A DNA stretch of 64,000 nucleotides from a virus (taxonomy: Duplodnaviria; Caudoviricetes): IMG/VR virus record IMGVR_UViG_3300025016_000004; one strand, 5' to 3'. Position 1 is the stretch's first letter. Every line of letters begins with the position of its first letter. Positions 2,071 to 53,793 of the stretch are shown one piece after another. Position numbers and translations under genes: made by a program. Under the pieces are notes generated by a model. That model did not search any database. It saw only the letters and a list, made by a program, of their open reading frames with translations, and had not been told where the DNA came from.

Positions 2071-3489
2071 ATGACAATTAAAGCAATATTTGATGAAATA
2101 AGTAACACAGCTGGTGATAATGCCAAAATGGATGTATTACGCAAGTATAAAGACAACGACTTACTTAAAGAAGTTTTGTATCGAATAAAATCTAAAAGAG
2201 TGAAGTTTTTTATTAAACAAATACCTGAATATATTTCATTAAATAGTTCAATCCCAGCTTCATTAGAGTGGGGTTTAAATAATCTTGATGAAATTTCTGA
2301 CAGAAAAATTAGTGGACAAGCGGCTATAAATCATTTAAAATTCATATTAGAAAGTGTATCACCAGATGATGCTTATATCATTGAGAGAATTATTGATAAA
2401 GACCCTAAGAATGGTTTAGGTAGAACCTACATTAATAAAGTCTATGGTGATTTGATTGAGAAAACGCCATATCAAGGTGCTAAATCATATGATGAAAAAT
2501 TAGCTAAAGATATTTTTAAGAAATATGGTTACGCTTATAGTGACGTTAAAATGGATGGTAGGTATGCTAACGCAATCATTCAAGGTGGTGAAGTTGAGTT
2601 AGAGTCTAGACAAGGTGAAACAACTCATATTCCAAGTGACTCATTATTATTTGAGGAATTATCAAAATTCCCTGATGGTGTATTAAATGGTGAGCTTACA
2701 ATGGAGAATTTAGACCGATACACAAGTAACGGTATTATAGCTTCAATTGTCGATATTGAGGGTCGTGGTAAAATGGGTGATAGAAGTGATGAAGAAACCG
2801 CTAAAAAATTAGTGGCATTCGAGAAAAAGCATGGTAGTTTTAAAGAAGCTGTTGATAAAATCAGATATACTGTATGGGATTCAATTACATTAGATGATTA
2901 TTTTAATAAGAAATCTGATATTGAATATAGACATAGATTGGATTTCTTATTTAAAAAGACTCCAGTTTTAGAATGTGATAGAGTATCAGTAGTTGAACGT
3001 AAGAAAGTATATTCTTATGATGAAGCAATGAGTCACTTCCAAGAGATTTTAAATAGAGGTGAAGAAGGTACCATCCTTAAAGCACCAACAGCTGGATGGT
3101 TTGATGGTAAGAAAAATCACCAAATAAAAATGAAATTAGAAATGAATATTGACCTTAGAGTTATAGGGTTTGAATATGGTGAAAAAAGAAGTAAAAATGA
3201 AAATGTTTATTCAACAATAAACCTTGAATCATCATGTGGTAAATTAAGAACCAATGCTTCTGGTATGACTGAGAAGATGATGAAAGATATTACTGAAAGA
3301 GGTGATGAACTTATGGGGACAATAGTAGAAATACGTTGTTGTGGTTTATCTCAAAACTCTAATGGTGATTGGTCAACTTTACATCCTTCAGTTGTTGAAT
3401 TGAGAGATGATAAAGATACTTGTGATTCATTAGAGTCATGTCAAGAGATTGAAGCAATGGCTAAAGGATTAGGTAAAGAAGTGGGATAA
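2071..3489 (+). CDS. ATP-dependent DNA ligase
   Basis: KMDGRY motif I, NGEL, EEGTILK, C-terminal OB fold, T4 gp30-like N-terminal domain. Confidence 0.93.
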   Translation: MTIKAIFDEISNTAGDNAKMDVLRKYKDNDLLKEVLYRIKSKRVKFFIKQIPEYISLNSSIPASLEWGLNNLDEISDRKISGQAAINHLKFILESVSPDDAYIIERIIDKDPKNGLGRTYINKVYGDLIEKTPYQGAKSYDEKLAKDIFKKYGYAYSDVKMDGRYANAIIQGGEVELESRQGETTHIPSDSLLFEELSKFPDGVLNGELTMENLDRYTSNGIIASIVDIEGRGKMGDRSDEETAKKLVAFEKKHGSFKEAVDKIRYTVWDSITLDDYFNKKSDIEYRHRLDFLFKKTPVLECDRVSVVERKKVYSYDEAMSHFQEILNRGEEGTILKAPTAGWFDGKKNHQIKMKLEMNIDLRVIGFEYGEKRSKNENVYSTINLESSCGKLRTNASGMTEKMMKDITERGDELMGTIVEIRCCGLSQNSNGDWSTLHPSVVELRDDKDTCDSLESCQEIEAMAKGLGKEVG

Positions 3490-3779
3490 TGGGAAAGTTA
3501 TTTATAATTATTACAATAATTTTGGTTTACGTTATTGGGTATGTAATATCATTAATTACATTGAAGAGGTGTGCTAAACAACTTGGGTTAGACCATTACG
3601 ATGATAATGATAGAGGGTATGTAATGATGGATGATTATGAATCAAATGAATCAGCTTGGATATCTTTTAGTTTTGTTTGGCCAGTGTTCTGGTTTATAAT
3701 TGGAATCATTGGATTCTTCAAATTCATTTCAAATCAAAGTGAAAAATTTTTAAATAAATTAAATAATGAAAAAACATAG
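3489..3779 (+). CDS. Small membrane protein
   Basis: Two hydrophobic segments. Confidence 0.7.
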   Translation: MGKLFIIITIILVYVIGYVISLITLKRCAKQLGLDHYDDNDRGYVMMDDYESNESAWISFSFVWPVFWFIIGIIGFFKFISNQSEKFLNKLNNEKT

Positions 3780-4230
3780 TGCATTCCCGAAAATCGGGCA
3801 ATATAGACAAGTAGTAAAAGAAGCTAGAGATAGAGCCGCATACATAGGTAAAGATGAGAATGGTGATGCAATTTTTGACTATTCTAAAGTTGCACCAACC
3901 ATTAAATTTAAAGGTACTGTGAAACTTCATGGGTGTTTTGATAAAAACTCTTTAGTTACTTTAAGTAATGGTGAAGAAATACCAATTAGTGAAATTAATG
4001 TTGGTGATTCTATTTTGAGTTATGATTTTGAATTTAATAGGTTTGTGGATAAAAAGGTTGTAAATACTGAAAACTTTAAATCAAATAAAAATTGGGTTGA
4101 GCTAGTATTTGATAATAATTCTTCAATAAAATGTACTGAAGACCATAAAATTTACACAAAAAATAGAGGGTGGGTTGAAGCCATTAACTTAACTGAAGAA
4201 GATGTTTTTTTAGAAAATGACCAAAATTAA
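3766..4230 (+). CDS. RNA ligase (Rnl2-like) N-extein (56 aa) fused to split intein N-half
   Basis: TVKLHG|CFDKNSLV (intein block A, C at 3934), TEDHKIYT..GWVEA (block B), stop at 4228-4230. Confidence 0.9.
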   Translation: MKKHSAFPKIGQYRQVVKEARDRAAYIGKDENGDAIFDYSKVAPTIKFKGTVKLHGCFDKNSLVTLSNGEEIPISEINVGDSILSYDFEFNRFVDKKVVNTENFKSNKNWVELVFDNNSSIKCTEDHKIYTKNRGWVEAINLTEEDVFLENDQN

Positions 4231-4274
4231 AGTTAGTTTCATGAAACGCTACATATTTATATTAAAAAGTAAAT

Positions 4275-5102
4275 ATGGTAATTACAACATGGTGTGAATT
4301 AGTAAATGGTAGGTGGGGTTACTCAAAACACCTATCTAAGATAAAATTTCCGATTAATATGGTTAAATGTGATGATTGTAATCACATATATAATGAAAGG
4401 TTTGATAAAACAAATAAAAGGTTTGAAAAAAATGAAAAAGATTTGTGTAAAAATTGTGTTAAAGAGAAAGAAGCTAAAAGACTTTCAGAGGTAGGTAAAA
4501 AAGCTTTAAGTAAAATATCAAAAAAAGATAGAACCAAAAATGCTAAATTGGGTGGTGAAGCATCATCTTTGAATCATAACAATTCTGGTAGATTTTCAAC
4601 GGAAAGGTGGGAGTCTATGAGTAAAAAAGAGCAAAATAAACAAGTAACAAGAGCAAATAAGGCATTACACGATAAATTAAATTCAGATGAAGAATTTAGA
4701 TTAAAACATTATTTAAAGATTTTTAAAAATTCTAAAATTGGTTTTACATCTAAAGGTCATAATGAATTACATGATTTTTTAAAAGAATATGGATTTAAAC
4801 AGCACCATGTAATAGATAAACTTGAGGTTGATGAATGTAATGTTAATAGAAAAATCGTTGTGGAATATAATGGGGATTTATATCATTGTAATCCTAGAAA
4901 ATATGATGGTGATTACTACAACACAGCAATTAAAATGATTTGCTCTGATAAATGGGAAAAGGATAGAAAAAGAACTTGGTTATTAAAAAGAAAGGGATAT
5001 AAAGTTTTTGTTGTTTGGGAAGATGATTGGTATAAAAATAGGGAAAAAATTAAAAATAGATTAAATAAATTTATTAATAATGAAATTAAAAAAGATAAAT
5101 AA
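4275..5102 (+). CDS. Free-standing Vsr/DUF559-like putative homing endonuclease
   Basis: VVEYNGDLYHCNP..KWEKD..R..LLKRKGYKVFVVWEDDW; lies between the intein halves. Confidence 0.85.
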   Translation: MVITTWCELVNGRWGYSKHLSKIKFPINMVKCDDCNHIYNERFDKTNKRFEKNEKDLCKNCVKEKEAKRLSEVGKKALSKISKKDRTKNAKLGGEASSLNHNNSGRFSTERWESMSKKEQNKQVTRANKALHDKLNSDEEFRLKHYLKIFKNSKIGFTSKGHNELHDFLKEYGFKQHHVIDKLEVDECNVNRKIVVEYNGDLYHCNPRKYDGDYYNTAIKMICSDKWEKDRKRTWLLKRKGYKVFVVWEDDWYKNREKIKNRLNKFINNEIKKDK

Positions 5103-6039
5103 AATAAAAGAAAGAAGGTCATTTGACCTTACGATACAAGACACAAATTGTTTTTTTGTAAATGACATTTTGGTGCATAATTCAAATGCGGGTATTGGAC
5201 ATACTGAAAATGATGGTATTTGGGCACAATCTAGAAGTAATATTATAACTCCTGAAAATGATAATATGGGGTTTGCAAGGTATGTTGAAGATAATAAACA
5301 AGCATTCCTTGAATTGGTTGAACATGTTAGATATGTAAACCATAAGATTAACCCAAACGATACTGTTATTGTATTCGGTGAATGGGCTGGTAAAGGCATC
5401 CAAAAAGGAGTTGCAATATCTCAAATAGAAAAGTCATTTTTCATATTTGACGTAAAAGTTGTACCTGAAGATAGTACTAAACCATATCATTTAGCTTCTC
5501 ACTATTTAAGAGATATTGACCATAGAATTTATAATGTTGAAGATTTCTTATCTTATGAAATCGAAATTGATTTTAATAGACCTGATTTGGCTCAAAATGA
5601 ATTAAGTGAGATTACCATTGCAGTTGAAGAATTATGCCCCGTAGGTAAAGCTTTTGGTATTGAAGGAATTGGTGAGGGTGTGGTTTGGTGTGCAACGGTT
5701 GATGGTCATGATTACCGTTTCAAAGTGAAGGGTGAACGACATAGCGCATCTAAAGTTAAGACTTTAGCTAAAGTTGATACTGAGAAAATAAATTCTATCC
5801 ATGAATTTGTTGGTTACGCTGTAACTCAAAATAGATTTGAACAAGGTATGGGCATTATTTTCCCTAACGGAGATATTGACATTAAAAAAATGGGTGATAT
5901 CATTAGATGGGTTGTGAATGATATTATGGCCGAAGAAAAGGATGTTTTAGAAGATAATAACCTCCAATCAAAAGATGTCAACAAATACATTTCAACAAAG
6001 GTTCGAGAACTCTTTTTAGAGGAATATAATAAACTTTGA
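5080..6039 (+). CDS. Split intein C-half (34 aa) fused to RNA ligase C-extein
   Basis: FDLTIQDTNCFFVNDILVHN|SNAG (blocks F/G); ligase motifs FGEWAG, EGVVW, FKVK. Confidence 0.9.
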   Translation: MKLKKINKIKERRSFDLTIQDTNCFFVNDILVHNSNAGIGHTENDGIWAQSRSNIITPENDNMGFARYVEDNKQAFLELVEHVRYVNHKINPNDTVIVFGEWAGKGIQKGVAISQIEKSFFIFDVKVVPEDSTKPYHLASHYLRDIDHRIYNVEDFLSYEIEIDFNRPDLAQNELSEITIAVEELCPVGKAFGIEGIGEGVVWCATVDGHDYRFKVKGERHSASKVKTLAKVDTEKINSIHEFVGYAVTQNRFEQGMGIIFPNGDIDIKKMGDIIRWVVNDIMAEEKDVLEDNNLQSKDVNKYISTKVRELFLEEYNKL

Positions 6040-6043
6040 TAAT

Positions 6044-6071
6044 AAAACCACCGAAAAGTGGTTTTTTTTTT
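6044..6071 (+). terminator. Intrinsic terminator
   Basis: AAAACCAC-CGAAAA-GTGGTTTT plus long T run. Confidence 0.8.
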
Positions 6072-6130
6072 TGCTAAAAACTTGTTTTTTTCCTTTTTTT
6101 GTAGTTACATTGCACAAAGATTATAAAATT

Positions 6131-9864: not shown

Positions 9865-10185
9865 AATATATTTGTTTTTTATATATATAAATATGCCGAA
9901 AATTTGGAAAATCAGACAAAATGTAGTATAATTGCGTTAAGAAACAATTAAATTACAACAAATTAAAAAAAAAGTGGGGATTTCATTTGGTAATCCCAGA
10001 TTTTATTTTTATGGTTGTACCAACACCTCATGATAAAATATTAGAAAATAGTAGAAAAGATTGTAGTTGTAGTAATGTTAAGACCGAAAGGTTTATGTAT
10101 ATAGATGCAATTAAATATTAAAAATTATTTAGTTATTTAAAATAATTTACATACCTTTGAAGAGTTAATATAAAATTTTTTGAAA

Positions 10186-11469
10186 ATGATTACTAAAGAA
10201 AATGGTTTAAGGTATGCAAAATTAGTCCATGTATCAGTTGATAATGGGTTAACATCTCAAAGTAATAAGGTGTATATAATGGAAGAACAACCTGATGGTA
10301 GAATCAAATGTGATTATGGTCGAGTTGGTAAAGATTTAGTGACTGTCTACAAGCGGTCACACGAATGGAATAAAGTTCTTCAAAGTAAAACAAACCCTAG
10401 AAAGGGTTATCAAGATGTTACAGACCTTATTGCTGAAACCACAACAACCTCTTCAAATAGTACATCATCAAAAACAGCTGATATTAAAGATAATCAAGTA
10501 AAACAATTATTTGATGATTTAATGGCTTATGCAAATAAATCAATCCAAAGAAACTATAAGGTTACACAAGATGCTGTAACTCAAGCACAAATTGATGCCG
10601 CTCAAGAAGTTTTAACAAAAGCTTCAGGATTGGCTAAAGTTGGTGTTAATGTTAAAGAAATCAACGACTTATTAATAAGACTGTACACCATCATTCCAAG
10701 AAAAATGAAAGATGTTCGTGATTATTTGATTGATGCTGCGGATGATAAAGATGATTTAGATAAGATAAAAAACTTCTTAGCTAACGAACAAGATACATTA
10801 GATACAATGGCTGGTCAGGTAAAACTTATTAGTCAACAAAAGGGTTCAACCATTGATGATGATTTAGATGGTGATGGGGAAATTACCTTATTAGAACAAA
10901 TGGGGTTAGAGGTGTCTGTTGAAACTGACCCTAAACAATTAGAATTGATAGATAGATTGGTTGGACCAACTAAAGATAGACTTAAAAAGGTTTATAAATG
11001 TGTTAATAAGAAAACACAAGCTGTATTCGATAAACATTACGGTAATGCTAGATTTAAAGACAGAAAATTATTCTGGCATGGGTCTAGAAATGAAAATATT
11101 TTTAATATAATCCAATCAGGATTATTAATTAGACCTTCAGGTGCAGTTCATACGGGGTCAATGTTTGGTGATGGAATATATTATGCTAATAAGGCTCAAA
11201 AATCATTAGGTTATACTTCAGTAAGAGGTTCTTATTGGGTAAATGGTAGTTCTAATAAGGGTTATTTATTGTTATATGATGTTTATCATGGAAAACAAAA
11301 AGATATTTATAAACATGATTCTAGTTGTTACTCATTATCTCAAAAAGTAATGGATGATGAAGGTTATGATTCAGTTTATGCACATGGTGGAGCGGATTTA
11401 AGAAATGATGAATTCATTATTTATAACCCAAAACAGTGCACTATTAAATATATAATTGAGATAGTCTAA
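10186..11469 (+). CDS. PARP-like ADP-ribosyltransferase (WGR-like, regulatory and catalytic domains)
   Basis: FWHGSR, GSMFGDGIYYAN..KSLGY, NDEFIIYN (H-Y-E triad). Confidence 0.92.
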   Translation: MITKENGLRYAKLVHVSVDNGLTSQSNKVYIMEEQPDGRIKCDYGRVGKDLVTVYKRSHEWNKVLQSKTNPRKGYQDVTDLIAETTTTSSNSTSSKTADIKDNQVKQLFDDLMAYANKSIQRNYKVTQDAVTQAQIDAAQEVLTKASGLAKVGVNVKEINDLLIRLYTIIPRKMKDVRDYLIDAADDKDDLDKIKNFLANEQDTLDTMAGQVKLISQQKGSTIDDDLDGDGEITLLEQMGLEVSVETDPKQLELIDRLVGPTKDRLKKVYKCVNKKTQAVFDKHYGNARFKDRKLFWHGSRNENIFNIIQSGLLIRPSGAVHTGSMFGDGIYYANKAQKSLGYTSVRGSYWVNGSSNKGYLLLYDVYHGKQKDIYKHDSSCYSLSQKVMDDEGYDSVYAHGGADLRNDEFIIYNPKQCTIKYIIEIV

Positions 11470-22805: not shown

Positions 22806-23924
22806 CTAATGGCTCACGTTAGCGTACAAAGGGTTGTCCCTAACCCCGAAATTCTTTATGTTATATGCAGCGTTTACATCTCTATCAATTGAATTACCGC
22901 ACTTATCACAATCATAAGTTCTATCTAAAAGTTTTAAATCTTTCTTGTGGTTTCCACAGTTAGAACATACTTTACTGCTTGGTTCAAACCTTCCAATTAC
23001 AACAAGATTTTTACCTTGCCATTCAGTCTTATATTCAAGCATTGTTCTTAATTGTCGCCAACCCATATCAGATATTGCTTTAGCTAAATTATGGTTCTTA
23101 ACCATATTACTAACAGACAAATCTTCCAATACAATTGTATTATAAGATTTAACTAATTCAGTAGATATTTTGTGCAAGTAATCAGTCCTTTGGTTACGAA
23201 TTTTTTCTTGCAGTAATGCTACTTTTAATTTTTGTTTTTCTCTATTTATTGAGTCTTTCTGTTTTCTTGCAAGGCTTCTTTGTTCAACTCTTAATCTTCT
23301 TTGTTGTGATTTAAAGAAGTTTTTATTTTCATATACTACACCATCAGAAGTAATAGCTAAATCTTTAATTCCAAAATCAATACCAACAGATGTTTCAGTT
23401 TTAATTGATTTTTTCTTTGGTTTTTCGGTTTGAGTATCAACCAATATTGAAACAAAATATTTACCAGTTACTGTTTTAGTTAATGTAACTCTTTTAGGTA
23501 AACCTTTAAATTCTCTGTGGTAATCAATAGCAACTTCTTTTAATTTAGGTAGCTTTAGTATTCCCTCTTTAAACGATATTTCAAATCCTTGTGGAAACGT
23601 AATTGACTGTTTGGAATACTTATTTTTAAATTTAGGAAATTGACCTTTACCCTTAAAAAAGTTTTGATATGCTGTATCTAAATTGATTATGCTATGTTGT
23701 AATACTTGACTTGGACATTCTTTAATGTAGTCAAATTCTTTTCTCAATTCTGGAAGTTGTTTTATTAAATCATATTTAGATATTGATTTTTTATTTGAGG
23801 CATACGCAACAGTCTTGGTTTCCAACCCCAAATTATAGACAAGTCTATTTACACCAAAATACCTTTGTAGTTGGTCTTTTTGGTCATCTGTTGGAAATAT
23901 TCTGTATTTGTATCCTTTAAGCAT
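22806..23924 (-). CDS. tnpB: IS605 TnpB RNA-guided nuclease
   Basis: HTH YKYRIFP, GIDFG (RuvC I), LEDL, SKVCSNCG Zn finger, DRDVNAA. Confidence 0.95.
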   Translation of the reverse strand: MLKGYKYRIFPTDDQKDQLQRYFGVNRLVYNLGLETKTVAYASNKKSISKYDLIKQLPELRKEFDYIKECPSQVLQHSIINLDTAYQNFFKGKGQFPKFKNKYSKQSITFPQGFEISFKEGILKLPKLKEVAIDYHREFKGLPKRVTLTKTVTGKYFVSILVDTQTEKPKKKSIKTETSVGIDFGIKDLAITSDGVVYENKNFFKSQQRRLRVEQRSLARKQKDSINREKQKLKVALLQEKIRNQRTDYLHKISTELVKSYNTIVLEDLSVSNMVKNHNLAKAISDMGWRQLRTMLEYKTEWQGKNLVVIGRFEPSSKVCSNCGNHKKDLKLLDRTYDCDKCGNSIDRDVNAAYNIKNFGVRDNPLYANVSH

Positions 23925-47552: not shown

Positions 47553-47809
47553 TGAAGATTACGTGGAATTTTAGAGTGTTGGTCACAGAACATAAACATG
47601 CTGATGGTGAAGTGGAAACTTGGTTGGCTATTCATGAAGTTTATAGTGATGACAAAAGTAACCCCCATAGTTATACAGAAAACTCAGTTGATATTTCTGG
47701 AAATACAAAAAAAGAGTTGAAGTAGCGTATTAAAAATGAAGGAATGTTTAAACAAACCTTATTTATGGGGTGATGATAGATTCCCACAAGAATATAAAAA
47801 AGGTGAGTA
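47552..47809 (+). pseudogene. Small phage gene interrupted by TAG at 47723
   Basis: WNFRVL..IHEVY..YTEN then LWGDDRFPQEY after the stop. Confidence 0.5.
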
Positions 47810-48030
47810 GTTTTACAGACCCAATTATTAAGCAACTTAGAAAATCTATTCCTGAATCTGAAGCAAGACTTAGACAGCTTAAGAAAGAGATAATACCTGA
47901 ATTCATTAAACCATATCACGTTAGGATATGTGAATTGATGGAAGGTAATCTTGAAGCTAATATAAGGTTTCTTAAAAAGATGGAAGCGTTTAAAAATGAA
48001 GAAATGACATCGAAATTTAAAAAGAAAAAA

Positions 48031-49377
48031 ATGAATAATTTAATTGGTGTTAGTGGGGGCATTAAAGCTGGTAAAGACCTTGTAGGGCAGATGATTCAAT
48101 ATATTGGTGATGAAATTGCTGAACCAACATTTGAAGGCTTTCAAGAGTTTCAAGTTACATTTACATTTACATTATATACCAAATATCAAATAAAGAAATT
48201 CGCTGATAAACTTAAAGATTGCCTATGCCTTATTTTAGGTTGTACTAGGGAACAACTTGAAGATAGAGATTATAAGAATACTGAATTAAGTGAAGATTGG
48301 TGGTATTATAAAGGAAATACTGGAATTTATCTTTATAATACTCCTTATAAAAGTAATAAGAAATTACCTCTTATTAAATTAACTCCTAGACTTTTACTTC
48401 AATTATTAGGTACTGAATGTGGTAGAAATATTATTCATCCAAATATTTGGTGCAACTCGCTTTTTTCTGACTACACAGGAGATATTGAAACTTGGAAAAA
48501 TATTAAAAGTTATGAAGGATTATACCAAATCTCTTCTTTTGGTAATGTAAAAAGTTTGGATAGAAAAATAACTTATGGTAATCATAAAGGAGAATACCAC
48601 ACTAGAAAAGGACAATTATTAAAACCTACTTTAAGTGGTGGATATGCAACAGTATCGTTAAGTGGAATTACTTACACTGTACATAGTTTAGTGGCTAGAC
48701 ATTTTTTGAAACAACCTGAAGGTAAAGATTATGTGATTAATCATATTGATTACAATAAAGAAAATAACTTTTATAAAAATCTTGAGTGGGTTAAACAAGC
48801 AGATAATGTAAGATATAATTATAAAGTAGGTAAAGCTAATATAGGAGAAAAGCAAAAAGATGCTAAACTTACAGATACTATTGTTTTACAAATTAAAGAC
48901 TGGTTATTTTCTGGAAAATATACCAATACTGAAATAGCAAGAAGAGTTAATGTATCACCTACAACTATTACAGATATAAAAAAAGGAAGGAAATGGAAGC
49001 ATGTAGGTAAAGAAATAGAAGAAATTCAACCAATATTACCTGAACCTACCTCTAACTGGATTATAACTGACGTTAGATTTCCTGAAAATGAAGGTAAAGC
49101 TGTTAGTGATAGAGGCGGTTTATTGATTGGCGTTAGACGAAAATTTGGGTTAAGATTTCCAGAGTATGCATTTCGTGAAATGCCTGATGACCCATATGCC
49201 ATACCATCAATGCTACAGAATGATGACGAAAAGTTATTTGATACTTTAACTCATGAGTCCGAGGTAAATATGGGTGACCATTCATGGTGTGATGTAGTAA
49301 TAGAAAACAACGGAACGGTTGAAGAGTTATTCAATGAAGTTTTGAAAGCTGTTTATTATAAAAAAGAATTAGTATGA
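48031..49377 (+). CDS. dNMP kinase-like protein with in-frame NUMOD4-HNH-HTH insertion (frame open from 47770)
   Basis: GVSGGIKAGKD, LQLLGTECGR..IW, WIITDVRF; insert WKNIKSYEGLYQISSFG..VHSLVA..NHID..NLEW. Confidence 0.85.
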   Translation: MNNLIGVSGGIKAGKDLVGQMIQYIGDEIAEPTFEGFQEFQVTFTFTLYTKYQIKKFADKLKDCLCLILGCTREQLEDRDYKNTELSEDWWYYKGNTGIYLYNTPYKSNKKLPLIKLTPRLLLQLLGTECGRNIIHPNIWCNSLFSDYTGDIETWKNIKSYEGLYQISSFGNVKSLDRKITYGNHKGEYHTRKGQLLKPTLSGGYATVSLSGITYTVHSLVARHFLKQPEGKDYVINHIDYNKENNFYKNLEWVKQADNVRYNYKVGKANIGEKQKDAKLTDTIVLQIKDWLFSGKYTNTEIARRVNVSPTTITDIKKGRKWKHVGKEIEEIQPILPEPTSNWIITDVRFPENEGKAVSDRGGLLIGVRRKFGLRFPEYAFREMPDDPYAIPSMLQNDDEKLFDTLTHESEVNMGDHSWCDVVIENNGTVEELFNEVLKAVYYKKELV

Positions 49378-52596: not shown

Positions 52597-53793
52597 CTAC
52601 CCACCCACAGCATAGCTGATGGGATGGGCTTCTGGTTTCATAGAGTGTGCTTTGTTGCCAAAGTCTGATTTACTCTCCACCTTTGTAATCGCAAGTTCCT
52701 CACGATATATTTTTAACCCTTCATTTAAGATATTGGTGCTTGCATTTAAATCACGGTCTAATTTATGACCATTATTGCAAGTCCACTCTCTATCTGAAAG
52801 ATTTAAGTCTTGATTTATATATCCACAAACACTACAAGTCTTACTTGAGGGATACCAACGATTGATTTTAACAACAGTTTTATCATTCCAATTTGCTTTG
52901 TACTCAACAAATCTAACAAACGTACCCCAACTTGCATCAGAGATATGTTTGGATAATTTTCTGTTTTTAACCATTCCTTTAATATTTAAATCTTCAAGGC
53001 ATATTACATCATAATTATTTACAATTTCATTACTTACTTTATGTAATACATCTTGCCTTGTGTTTGTGATTTTCTCGTGAATTAAGGCAACTTTGAGTTT
53101 TTGTTTTTCAAACCCATTACTACCATTCTGTTTACGAGAAAGATGTTGTTGTGCTTTCTTTAATTTTCTTTCATATCTTTTTGTGTATCTATTATTTTTA
53201 TACTTTATTCCATCAGAAGTGATAGCAAAGTCTTTTAAACCTAAATCTATTCCAACCGATTTATAAGTTTTTTTACTTGGATGATATTCTTGTTCAGTGA
53301 AAATTGAAACAAAATACTTCCCAGTTGGAGTTTTAGATATTGTGAATTTACCCACCTCACCTTTAATTTCTCTATGAATATTCACCTTAATACCACCTTT
53401 AAATTTAGGTGCGTATATTCTGCCATCCATAACTTTAGTATGTTGTGGTACTGTAAATGTATTTTTATTCTTTTTTGATTTAAATCTTGGGAACTTAGCG
53501 TTACCTCTAAAGAAGTTCACATAAGCGGTGTCTAAAGAGCGTAAAGCAAATTGAAGTGTTTGGCTATTCACTTCTTTCAACCAAATGGTGTCTTCTTGTT
53601 TTTTTAATTCAGTTAATGTTTTGGCTTGTCCGTAATAGTTATCGGTTTTTTTATCTGCTTGATACTGTTCCTTACGTTCATTTAAAAAGTGATTGTAAAT
53701 ATACCTAACACAACCAAAGTGCTTATCCAATAAGGTTTTCTGCTCCTTATTAGGTAATAATTCAAATTTATATGTTCTGTGTATATTCTTCAC
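52597..53793 (-). CDS. tnpB: IS605 TnpB
   Basis: GIDLGL, CLEDL, SKTCSVCG, DRDLNAS. Confidence 0.95.
   Translation of the reverse strand: MKNIHRTYKFELLPNKEQKTLLDKHFGCVRYIYNHFLNERKEQYQADKKTDNYYGQAKTLTELKKQEDTIWLKEVNSQTLQFALRSLDTAYVNFFRGNAKFPRFKSKKNKNTFTVPQHTKVMDGRIYAPKFKGGIKVNIHREIKGEVGKFTISKTPTGKYFVSIFTEQEYHPSKKTYKSVGIDLGLKDFAITSDGIKYKNNRYTKRYERKLKKAQQHLSRKQNGSNGFEKQKLKVALIHEKITNTRQDVLHKVSNEIVNNYDVICLEDLNIKGMVKNRKLSKHISDASWGTFVRFVEYKANWNDKTVVKINRWYPSSKTCSVCGYINQDLNLSDREWTCNNGHKLDRDLNASTNILNEGLKIYREELAITKVESKSDFGNKAHSMKPEAHPISYAVGG

Follow-up and report, generated by a model that had tools for sequence, protein, structure and literature searches.

Fractured genes were described by Dassa, London, Stoddard, Schueler-Furman and Pietrokovski (2009; PMC2677866), who gave the layout and its phage origin. 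One enzyme is encoded by two adjacent open reading frames (ORFs) on the same strand, of which the upstream one ends in the N-terminal half of a split intein (IntN) and the downstream one starts with the C-terminal half (IntC); a free-standing endonuclease ORF lies in between, and the joined exteins match uninterrupted homologues. The reported hosts are gp41, IMPDH, DnaE, NrdA, NrdJ, DNA ligase, terminase and one unknown protein, but no RNA ligase. The same study found overlaps of 6-69 bp between the endonuclease gene and IntC, and hairpins upstream of the endonuclease genes. Here we consider a stretch of 64,000 nucleotides (nt) from IMG/VR virus record IMGVR_UViG_3300025016_000004 (Caudoviricetes), hereafter the window, an AT-rich phage DNA (31% GC) that we attribute to a large phage from groundwater or an aquifer. 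Positions 3766-6039 very probably represent a fractured gene, in which a mobile cassette (IntN, an EDxHD/Vsr-like endonuclease gene and IntC) is placed between Gly56 and residue 57 of motif I of a predicted RNA ligase, the ligase being joined by predicted trans-splicing and the cassette being spread by homing. The features of the locus are as follows (lengths in amino acids, aa).

3766-3933, + strand: N-extein of the predicted RNA ligase, 56 aa, with motif I K53-L-H-G56 at its C-terminus
3934-4230, + strand: IntN of the predicted class-1 split intein, 98 aa, with Cys1 and block B C-T-E-D-H; TAA stop at 4228-4230
4231-4274, + strand: spacer from IntN to the endonuclease gene, with a palindrome and a small hairpin
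4275-5102, + strand: predicted free-standing homing endonuclease gene, EDxHD/Vsr-like, 275 aa, by Pfam and fold match
5080-5181, + strand: IntC, 34 aa, with its own ATG, block F Asp16 and block G ...LVHN
5182-6039, + strand: C-extein of the predicted RNA ligase, 285 aa plus stop, starting at Ser+1, with motifs III-V followed by the C-terminal domain
6044-6065, + strand: terminator-like hairpin and T-run from a pattern scan, closing the three-gene unit

The region is thus taken up by three ORFs, all on the + strand. The N-half ORF (3766-4230, 154 aa) begins with an ATG at 3766 and its start resembles that of uninterrupted ligases (MKKHSAFPKIGQYRQ...). Lys53 of motif I is encoded by codon 3922-3924, the Gly56 codon ends at 3933 and the intein Cys1 is codon 3934-3936, while the TAA at 4228-4230 is directly followed by additional in-frame stops, with a TAG two codons on. 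The endonuclease ORF lies in a different reading frame from the N-half. The C-half ORF (5080-6039, 319 aa) starts at an ATG at 5080, overlaps the end of the endonuclease ORF by 23 nt and encodes 34 residues ending in ...DILVHN, after which SNAGIGHTEND... leads into the body of the ligase; Ser+1 is codon 5182-5184. An initial annotation, made from the sequence alone, had placed the interruption in motif I after KLHG, with a 98-aa IntN that starts with Cys at 3934 and ends at a real stop, and a 34-aa IntC that ends in HN, is followed by Ser and has its own ATG overlapping the endonuclease ORF. All of its coordinates and features were recovered when ORFs, frames, stops and overlap were derived anew, and the homologues read KLHG/TNAG across the junction (the slash marks the insertion point). 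In the related locus L001 the gene caller adds 121 upstream residues (3319-3681) to the N-half, giving 272 aa; nothing in the window or in uninterrupted ligases corresponds to this extension, which is probably an ORF of its own or a mis-call.

Set against the fractured genes of Dassa et al., the locus has the same two adjacent ORFs on one strand with terminal intein halves, the free-standing endonuclease ORF between them, exteins that together match uninterrupted homologues, a phage origin and an overlap that falls within the reported range (related loci have overlaps of 4, 11 and 20 nt). A hairpin is also predicted at the start of the endonuclease gene, but it is no better than those of shuffled sequences and is without a clear TATAAATA late-promoter box. 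The locus differs in its host, an ATP-dependent Rnl2-like RNA ligase by prediction and thus outside the eight listed types, and in the position of the insertion, inside motif I and two residues past the lysine that is predicted to be adenylylated. The initial annotation had named gp41, NrdJ, IMPDH and DnaE as known hosts of split inteins accompanied by Vsr-like endonucleases, all four of which are indeed in the published list, and had called an RNA-ligase host unusual. The latter holds for the literature but not for nature, as the N-halves of such split ligases form about 30 protein clusters in metagenomes, with identities down to 49%. The layout itself has been known since 2009; in our literature search, of which the coverage was incomplete, no paper was found that names an ATP-dependent RNA ligase as host. 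Nor did this incomplete search yield an intein in an Rnl2-type RNA ligase, the inteins encountered being those of RtcB-type and tRNA-splicing ligases in actinobacteriophages.

The ligase host and its uninterrupted homologues

The C-half carries a Pfam RNA_ligase domain (PF09414, 1.2e-8, above cut-off) and matches the PHROGs family phrog_548 'RNA ligase' (5.6e-57, profile positions 39-339 of 341). The KLHGTN of an uninterrupted homologue aligns with K35-IHGTN of T4 RNA ligase 2 (Rnl2; PDB 2hvq), of which the motif I lysine, the counterpart of Lys53, is the adenylylated residue. Lys53 is therefore the predicted adenylylation site, with the intein two residues after it. The C-extein contains motifs III (FGEWAG), IIIa (FFIFDV), IV (GEGVVW) and V (FKVKG), and the joined motif I would read KLHGSN. 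Since the motif I lysine lies upstream of the break, on the N-extein, as had been annotated, and motifs III to V lie downstream of it, on the C-extein, the active site is incomplete in each half. The ligase probably needs to be assembled at the protein level, by predicted trans-splicing.

On the basis of these domains and motifs, we classify the host as a predicted Rnl2-like ATP-dependent RNA ligase (PF09414). It has in common with T4 Rnl2 (2hvq, 1s68) the K-x-H-G-T-N of motif I (K35-N40 in T4), motifs III-V and membership of PF09414. The relation is nevertheless distant (E 3.5e-6 over about 110 residues), the leader before the lysine is longer in the window (52 residues), and the match of the C-terminal domain to T4_Rnl2_C is weak and below cut-off (E 0.078). 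Close by in the window are the 3' end of an Rnl1-type RNA ligase gene (2-454, +), 61% identical to the Rnl1 of locus L011, and an ATP-dependent DNA ligase gene (2071-3489, +), and 20 tRNA genes are found further on. This ligase cluster and the tRNA genes would fit a role in RNA repair.

A search with the C-half gave 2485 relatives, and the tree and the counts of the +1 residue given below are based on the best 120 of these (11 split, 109 uninterrupted). The majority of the 120 are uninterrupted proteins of about 341 aa, at most 83% identical, that read ...TVKLHG/TNAG... The window exteins of 56 and 285 aa add up to 341 aa, exactly the length of the uninterrupted homologues P0002, P0003 and P0004, and the N-terminus of the N-extein matches that of the uninterrupted 341-aa homologues residue for residue. 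Moreover, loci L010 and L011 have an uninterrupted ligase gene in the same neighbourhood, with genes for HSP20, a nucleotidyltransferase, DNA ligase and RNA ligase and with the same downstream genes. Their flanking proteins are 74-92% identical to those of the window and the DNA at the junction can be aligned codon for codon. A second copy of the ligase was not found within the 64-kb window, where profiles of the three ORFs match only themselves. Among 50,697 phage records the sole DNA match was one of 128 nt (73%) within the ligase gene of a Salmonella phage, so that no cultured relative is at hand.

The split intein and the endonuclease

The intein assignment made in the initial annotation is supported by Pfam (Hint, 4.3e-10, and Intein_splicing in the N-half; Intein_splicing, profile positions 122-155 of 155, in the C-half) and by the residues that are conserved among the relatives. 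We aligned 26 N-halves and 11 C-halves with identities down to 49%. Motif I K53, H55 and G56, Cys1 (C57) and block B T124 and H127 are invariant in all 26 N-halves, in which the position of the stop is also nearly the same, and block F Asp16, H33, N34 and Ser+1 (S35) are invariant in the 11 C-halves. The hallmarks of a class-1 split intein, to wit Cys1, block B T-x-x-H, block F Asp, the terminal His-Asn and Ser+1, are thus all present in the predicted protein sequences. The net charge of IntN is -9, whereas that of the first 15 residues of IntC is +6.

The suggested comparison with the gp41-1 and NrdJ-1 inteins showed that the window intein is a distant sequence relative of both. With a profile of the 26 N-halves the nearest solved intein was NrdJ-1 (8ubs, E 1e-12); for IntC a sequence search gave gp41-1 (6qaz, E 5.7e-4) and NrdJ-1 as nearest, with a common ...NDIL(V/T)HN. 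By sequence, the window intein is therefore a relative of NrdJ-1 and gp41-1 and not a new type. It shares with them the signature of class-1 chemistry with Cys1, the T..H of block B, the C-terminal ...NDIL(V/T)HN and Ser+1, as well as a split located at the endonuclease insertion point. It differs in being distant in sequence, in its sizes of 98 and 34 aa and in having Asn in place of the block F His.

The middle ORF matches DUF559 and MTES_1575 in Pfam and combines an N-terminal part of CxxC...CxxC and helices with a nuclease domain at about residues 175-270. Compared with solved structures by sequence alone it gave weak matches to 3hrl, 3r3p and Vsr (E 0.02-0.36). The fold search settled what these searches left weak, and we assign the protein to the EDxHD/Vsr-like endonucleases on that account: for an AlphaFold2 model with a predicted local distance difference test score (pLDDT) of 81.8, the best Foldseek match was 3r3p, the catalytic domain of I-Bth0305I (E 9.3e-5, template modelling (TM) score 0.74 by target), followed by Vsr (1cw0, 1vsr) and 3hrl. 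I-Bth0305I is the prototype of the EDxHD homing endonucleases (Taylor et al. 2011, PMC3239194), a family that includes the Vsr-like genes of fractured loci. D186, E197, G200, D201, H204, D230 and W248 are invariant in 21 homologues of the window protein, which also share the N-terminal CxxC...CxxC, and the spacing of D186, E197 and H204 is the same as that of Vsr D51, F62 and H69, the positions singled out by Dassa et al. (2009, PMC2677866). The annotation of this ORF as a free-standing Vsr-like endonuclease between the two halves is thus backed by both the fold match and the invariant acidic and histidine residues.

Like I-Bth0305I, the window enzyme would have a C-terminal nuclease of the Vsr fold with conserved acidic and histidine residues, preceded by a DNA-binding part. 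However, I-Bth0305I itself is located within a group I intron of recA and has NUMOD and helix-turn-helix (HTH) motifs, whereas the gene in the window stands alone between the halves of an intein, and the N-terminal part of its product contains CxxC...CxxC and long helices. No NUMOD motif was detected there in the Pfam scan, and the family membership consequently rests on the catalytic domain. The I-Bth0305I consensus TTxG-x6-CxAA was not found, by eye, at the junction of the empty allele, which is uninformative on the target of the window enzyme.

The spacer in front of the endonuclease gene contains a palindrome, GTTTCATGAAAC, at 4236-4247 and a small hairpin with arms at 4252-4260 and 4269-4277, the 3' arm of which includes the start codon of the endonuclease. 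Loci L001 and L012 share the palindrome and a CATATTTATA motif, which L005 has in part, and the hairpin is likewise repeated in relatives. It would be consistent with the hairpins that Dassa et al. reported upstream of such genes. A pattern scan of the + strand revealed no terminator-like site between the three ORFs, and in a promoter scan sigma-70-like sites were fewer than in shuffled sequences, with no usable promoter among them.

Proposed mechanism and alternative explanations

In the mechanism that we propose, the three ORFs would be transcribed together, and translation of the C-half would be coupled to that of the endonuclease, because their ORFs overlap. The acidic IntN and the basic N-terminus of IntC would then associate into the Hint fold, and class-1 splicing would proceed by the acyl shift at Cys1, attack by Ser+1 and cyclisation of Asn34. 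In this way the exteins of 56 and 285 aa would be joined to a 341-aa ligase that reads KLHGSN, and an adenylylated Lys53 would be in one chain with motifs III to V in the joined protein only. The endonuclease, for its part, would cut the uninterrupted ligase alleles (KLHG/TN) of co-infecting relatives, and repair would copy the cassette, together with flanking extein sequence, into the cut allele.

Some observations weigh against this combination of trans-splicing and homing, or limit the support for it. The block F His of gp41-1 and NrdJ-1 is Asn23 in the window allele and in its closest relatives, although it is kept in the distant alleles P0051 and P0067, and such a replacement could make the last step of splicing slower. 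The two intein halves are predicted to bind, in that a model of IntN residues 50-154 together with IntC residues 1-42 reached a score of 0.78, where the best of three controls reached 0.01 (the 0.78 mark is attained by 58 of 80 solved complexes and by 2 of 110 mismatched pairs), with runs agreeing in at least 85% of contacts and a partner pLDDT of at least 72; this pass may nonetheless reflect likeness to solved split-intein complexes, that is, likeness and not binding. The folding energies of the spacer do not stand out from those of shuffled sequences (z -0.8, -1.65 and +0.5). The sole evidence of expression is a metatranscriptome contig of 161 nt and depth 3 on 5634-5794, from a single library with possible DNA carry-over that leaves the remaining stretch uncovered. 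In general, the environmental cover consists of contigs, mostly from possible source samples, and is uninformative on transcript ends or expression level. Finally, purifying selection is indicated by ratios of nonsynonymous to synonymous substitution rates (dN/dS) of about 0.3 (IntN), 0.17-0.36 (endonuclease) and 0.12-0.27 (exteins), but dS is near saturation for the distant pairs, which makes those ratios rough.

Three short ORFs where relatives carry one gene, with a C-half that gene callers mis-start (P0001 begins at VHNSN), could also be the result of a sequencing or assembly error, or of a recent disruptive insertion that left two non-functional fragments. We regard this as extremely improbable. 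In a public collection 128 index blocks contain the identical N-half, and the three-ORF layout is shared by separate JGI and ENA assemblies. It is also present in L001-L009, L012, L014 and L015, and diverged copies from further samples, with C-half identities of 70%, 60% and 51%, have kept it. An assembly error at the stop at 4228, which the initial annotation had named as one finding that would overturn its reading, is excluded by these independent assemblies and diverged copies. Contigs from three aquifer runs, which may be the source data, cover 3700-6100 with zero differences. Furthermore, all splicing residues and ligase motifs are conserved, and dN/dS is well under 1 in all parts.

Another explanation takes the split as real and the splicing as lost: the intein halves would still bind, and the intein fold would keep the ligase together as two chains without a covalent link, or the ligase halves would have separate roles. 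The Asn in block F would agree with this, and intein-free fractured genes with short added peptides do exist, such as the SbcD-like locus in Dassa et al. (PMC2677866). However, some 30 diverged alleles all keep Cys1, Ser+1, the penultimate His and the terminal Asn, none of which would be needed for binding alone, and an intein of 132 aa between Gly56 and Ser57 would occupy the nucleotide-binding pocket beside Lys53, given the position of motif I in T4 Rnl2. We therefore consider loss of splicing improbable. The cassette could also be more than a parasite, in that splicing could act as a switch that makes ligase activity timed or condition-dependent, for instance by redox control via Cys123, beside block B, and Cys24 in block F. 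An insertion two residues from the catalytic lysine would make activity depend wholly on splicing; of the two cysteines, Cys123 is invariant and Cys24 almost invariant, and the cassette persists under purifying selection. Yet inteins are commonly located in active-site motifs because the DNA sites there are conserved, and the patchy distribution, the many intein-less sisters and the near-identical cassette in diverged hosts are all to be expected of a selfish homing element. Since, in addition, no regulatory evidence was found in the sequence analyses of the locus, a switch seems quite improbable to us, and the spliced, homing cassette remains the reading that we follow below.

Spread of the cassette and other genes in the window

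In a maximum-likelihood tree of the 120 C-exteins, the 11 split alleles occur in at least eight places. Several of these have well-supported uninterrupted sisters, for example P0005 with P0019, P0028 with P0032, and P0036 with P0064 and P0072. The IntC sequences of P0005, P0028 and P0036 are 97-100% identical, against just 49-61% for their C-exteins. A comparison of L001 with L012 at the DNA level gave 93-100% identity for IntN, endonuclease and IntC and about 80% for the N-extein, and along the length of the C-extein the identity falls from 88% to about 40%. Such a gradient is the pattern expected of homing with co-conversion of the flanks. The +1 residue is Ser without exception in the 11 split alleles, whereas 108 of the 109 uninterrupted ones have Thr. 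The lone uninterrupted allele with a Ser after KLHG is P0013 (341 aa, from a metagenome), which may be the footprint of a precise cassette loss or a pre-adapted site.

The relatives of IntN extend beyond this ligase type. A phmmer search of 1.8 billion representatives yielded 2296 relatives, the closest of which include the N-half of a T4 Rnl2-type ligase (P0187, locus L015) and N-halves of ligases of the PHA02142 type with an oligonucleotide/oligosaccharide-binding (OB) fold (P0197, P0208, P0222 and P0227; locus L014). All five are cut at K-x-H-G/. In L014 (3001-4927) and L015 (3001-5308) the same kind of endonuclease comes next, and in L015 and a second contig, with P0222, the next ORF has an RNA_ligase domain. 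The L015 ligase is a true T4 Rnl2-type enzyme, with the Rnl2 C-terminal domain. N-halves of helicase, DnaE and ribonucleotide reductase (RNR) are among the more distant relatives. We lean slightly towards a single intein-endonuclease lineage for which the DNA of motif I (K-x-H-G / T/S-N) serves as a shared landing site and which has moved among at least three structurally different families of ATP-dependent RNA ligases, i.e. the 341-aa type, the T4 Rnl2 type and the OB-fold PHA02142 type. One further metagenomic host protein, P0194 (403 aa), contains a complete mini-intein and, about 35 residues on, a second, near-identical copy of IntN at its C-terminus, and would thus have one cis and one trans intein in tandem.

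With these loci, ATP-dependent RNA ligases are added, as predicted hosts, to the fractured genes, and the active-site motif of the ligase appears as a recurrent landing site for inteins in several ligase families. The syntenic empty alleles, the near-identical cassettes in diverged hosts and the decaying gradient in the C-extein make for an unusually clear natural record of spread. Should the reading of one lineage with one landing site be true, the window would hold the first natural split intein to be described for ATP-dependent RNA ligases, caught while actively spreading and with a visible co-conversion tract, and it would place one more split intein of the NrdJ-1/gp41-1 clade among the candidate orthogonal tools. 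In fact, considering its sizes of 98 and 34 aa, the Ser+1 junction, the many natural variants and the kinship with the fast NrdJ-1 and gp41-1, the intein is a reasonable candidate for the split-intein toolbox. The general understanding of inteins or of RNA ligases is unchanged by the locus.

Elsewhere in the window, a 535-aa ORF at 47770-49377 (+) combines, in one frame, a deoxynucleoside monophosphate kinase (phrog_139, residues 70-236) with NUMOD4 and an HNH endonuclease (residues ~240-417), and may be a further case of a homing endonuclease that has entered a host gene or become fused to one. At 22806-23924 (-) and 52597-53793 (-) there are two transposase-like paralogues (phrog_506, E 1e-125 and 1e-135), while nearly all other genes are on the other strand. 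A 429-aa protein encoded at 10180-11469 (+) has the catalytic domain of poly(ADP-ribose) polymerase (PF00644, 4.8e-24), which is unusual for a phage.

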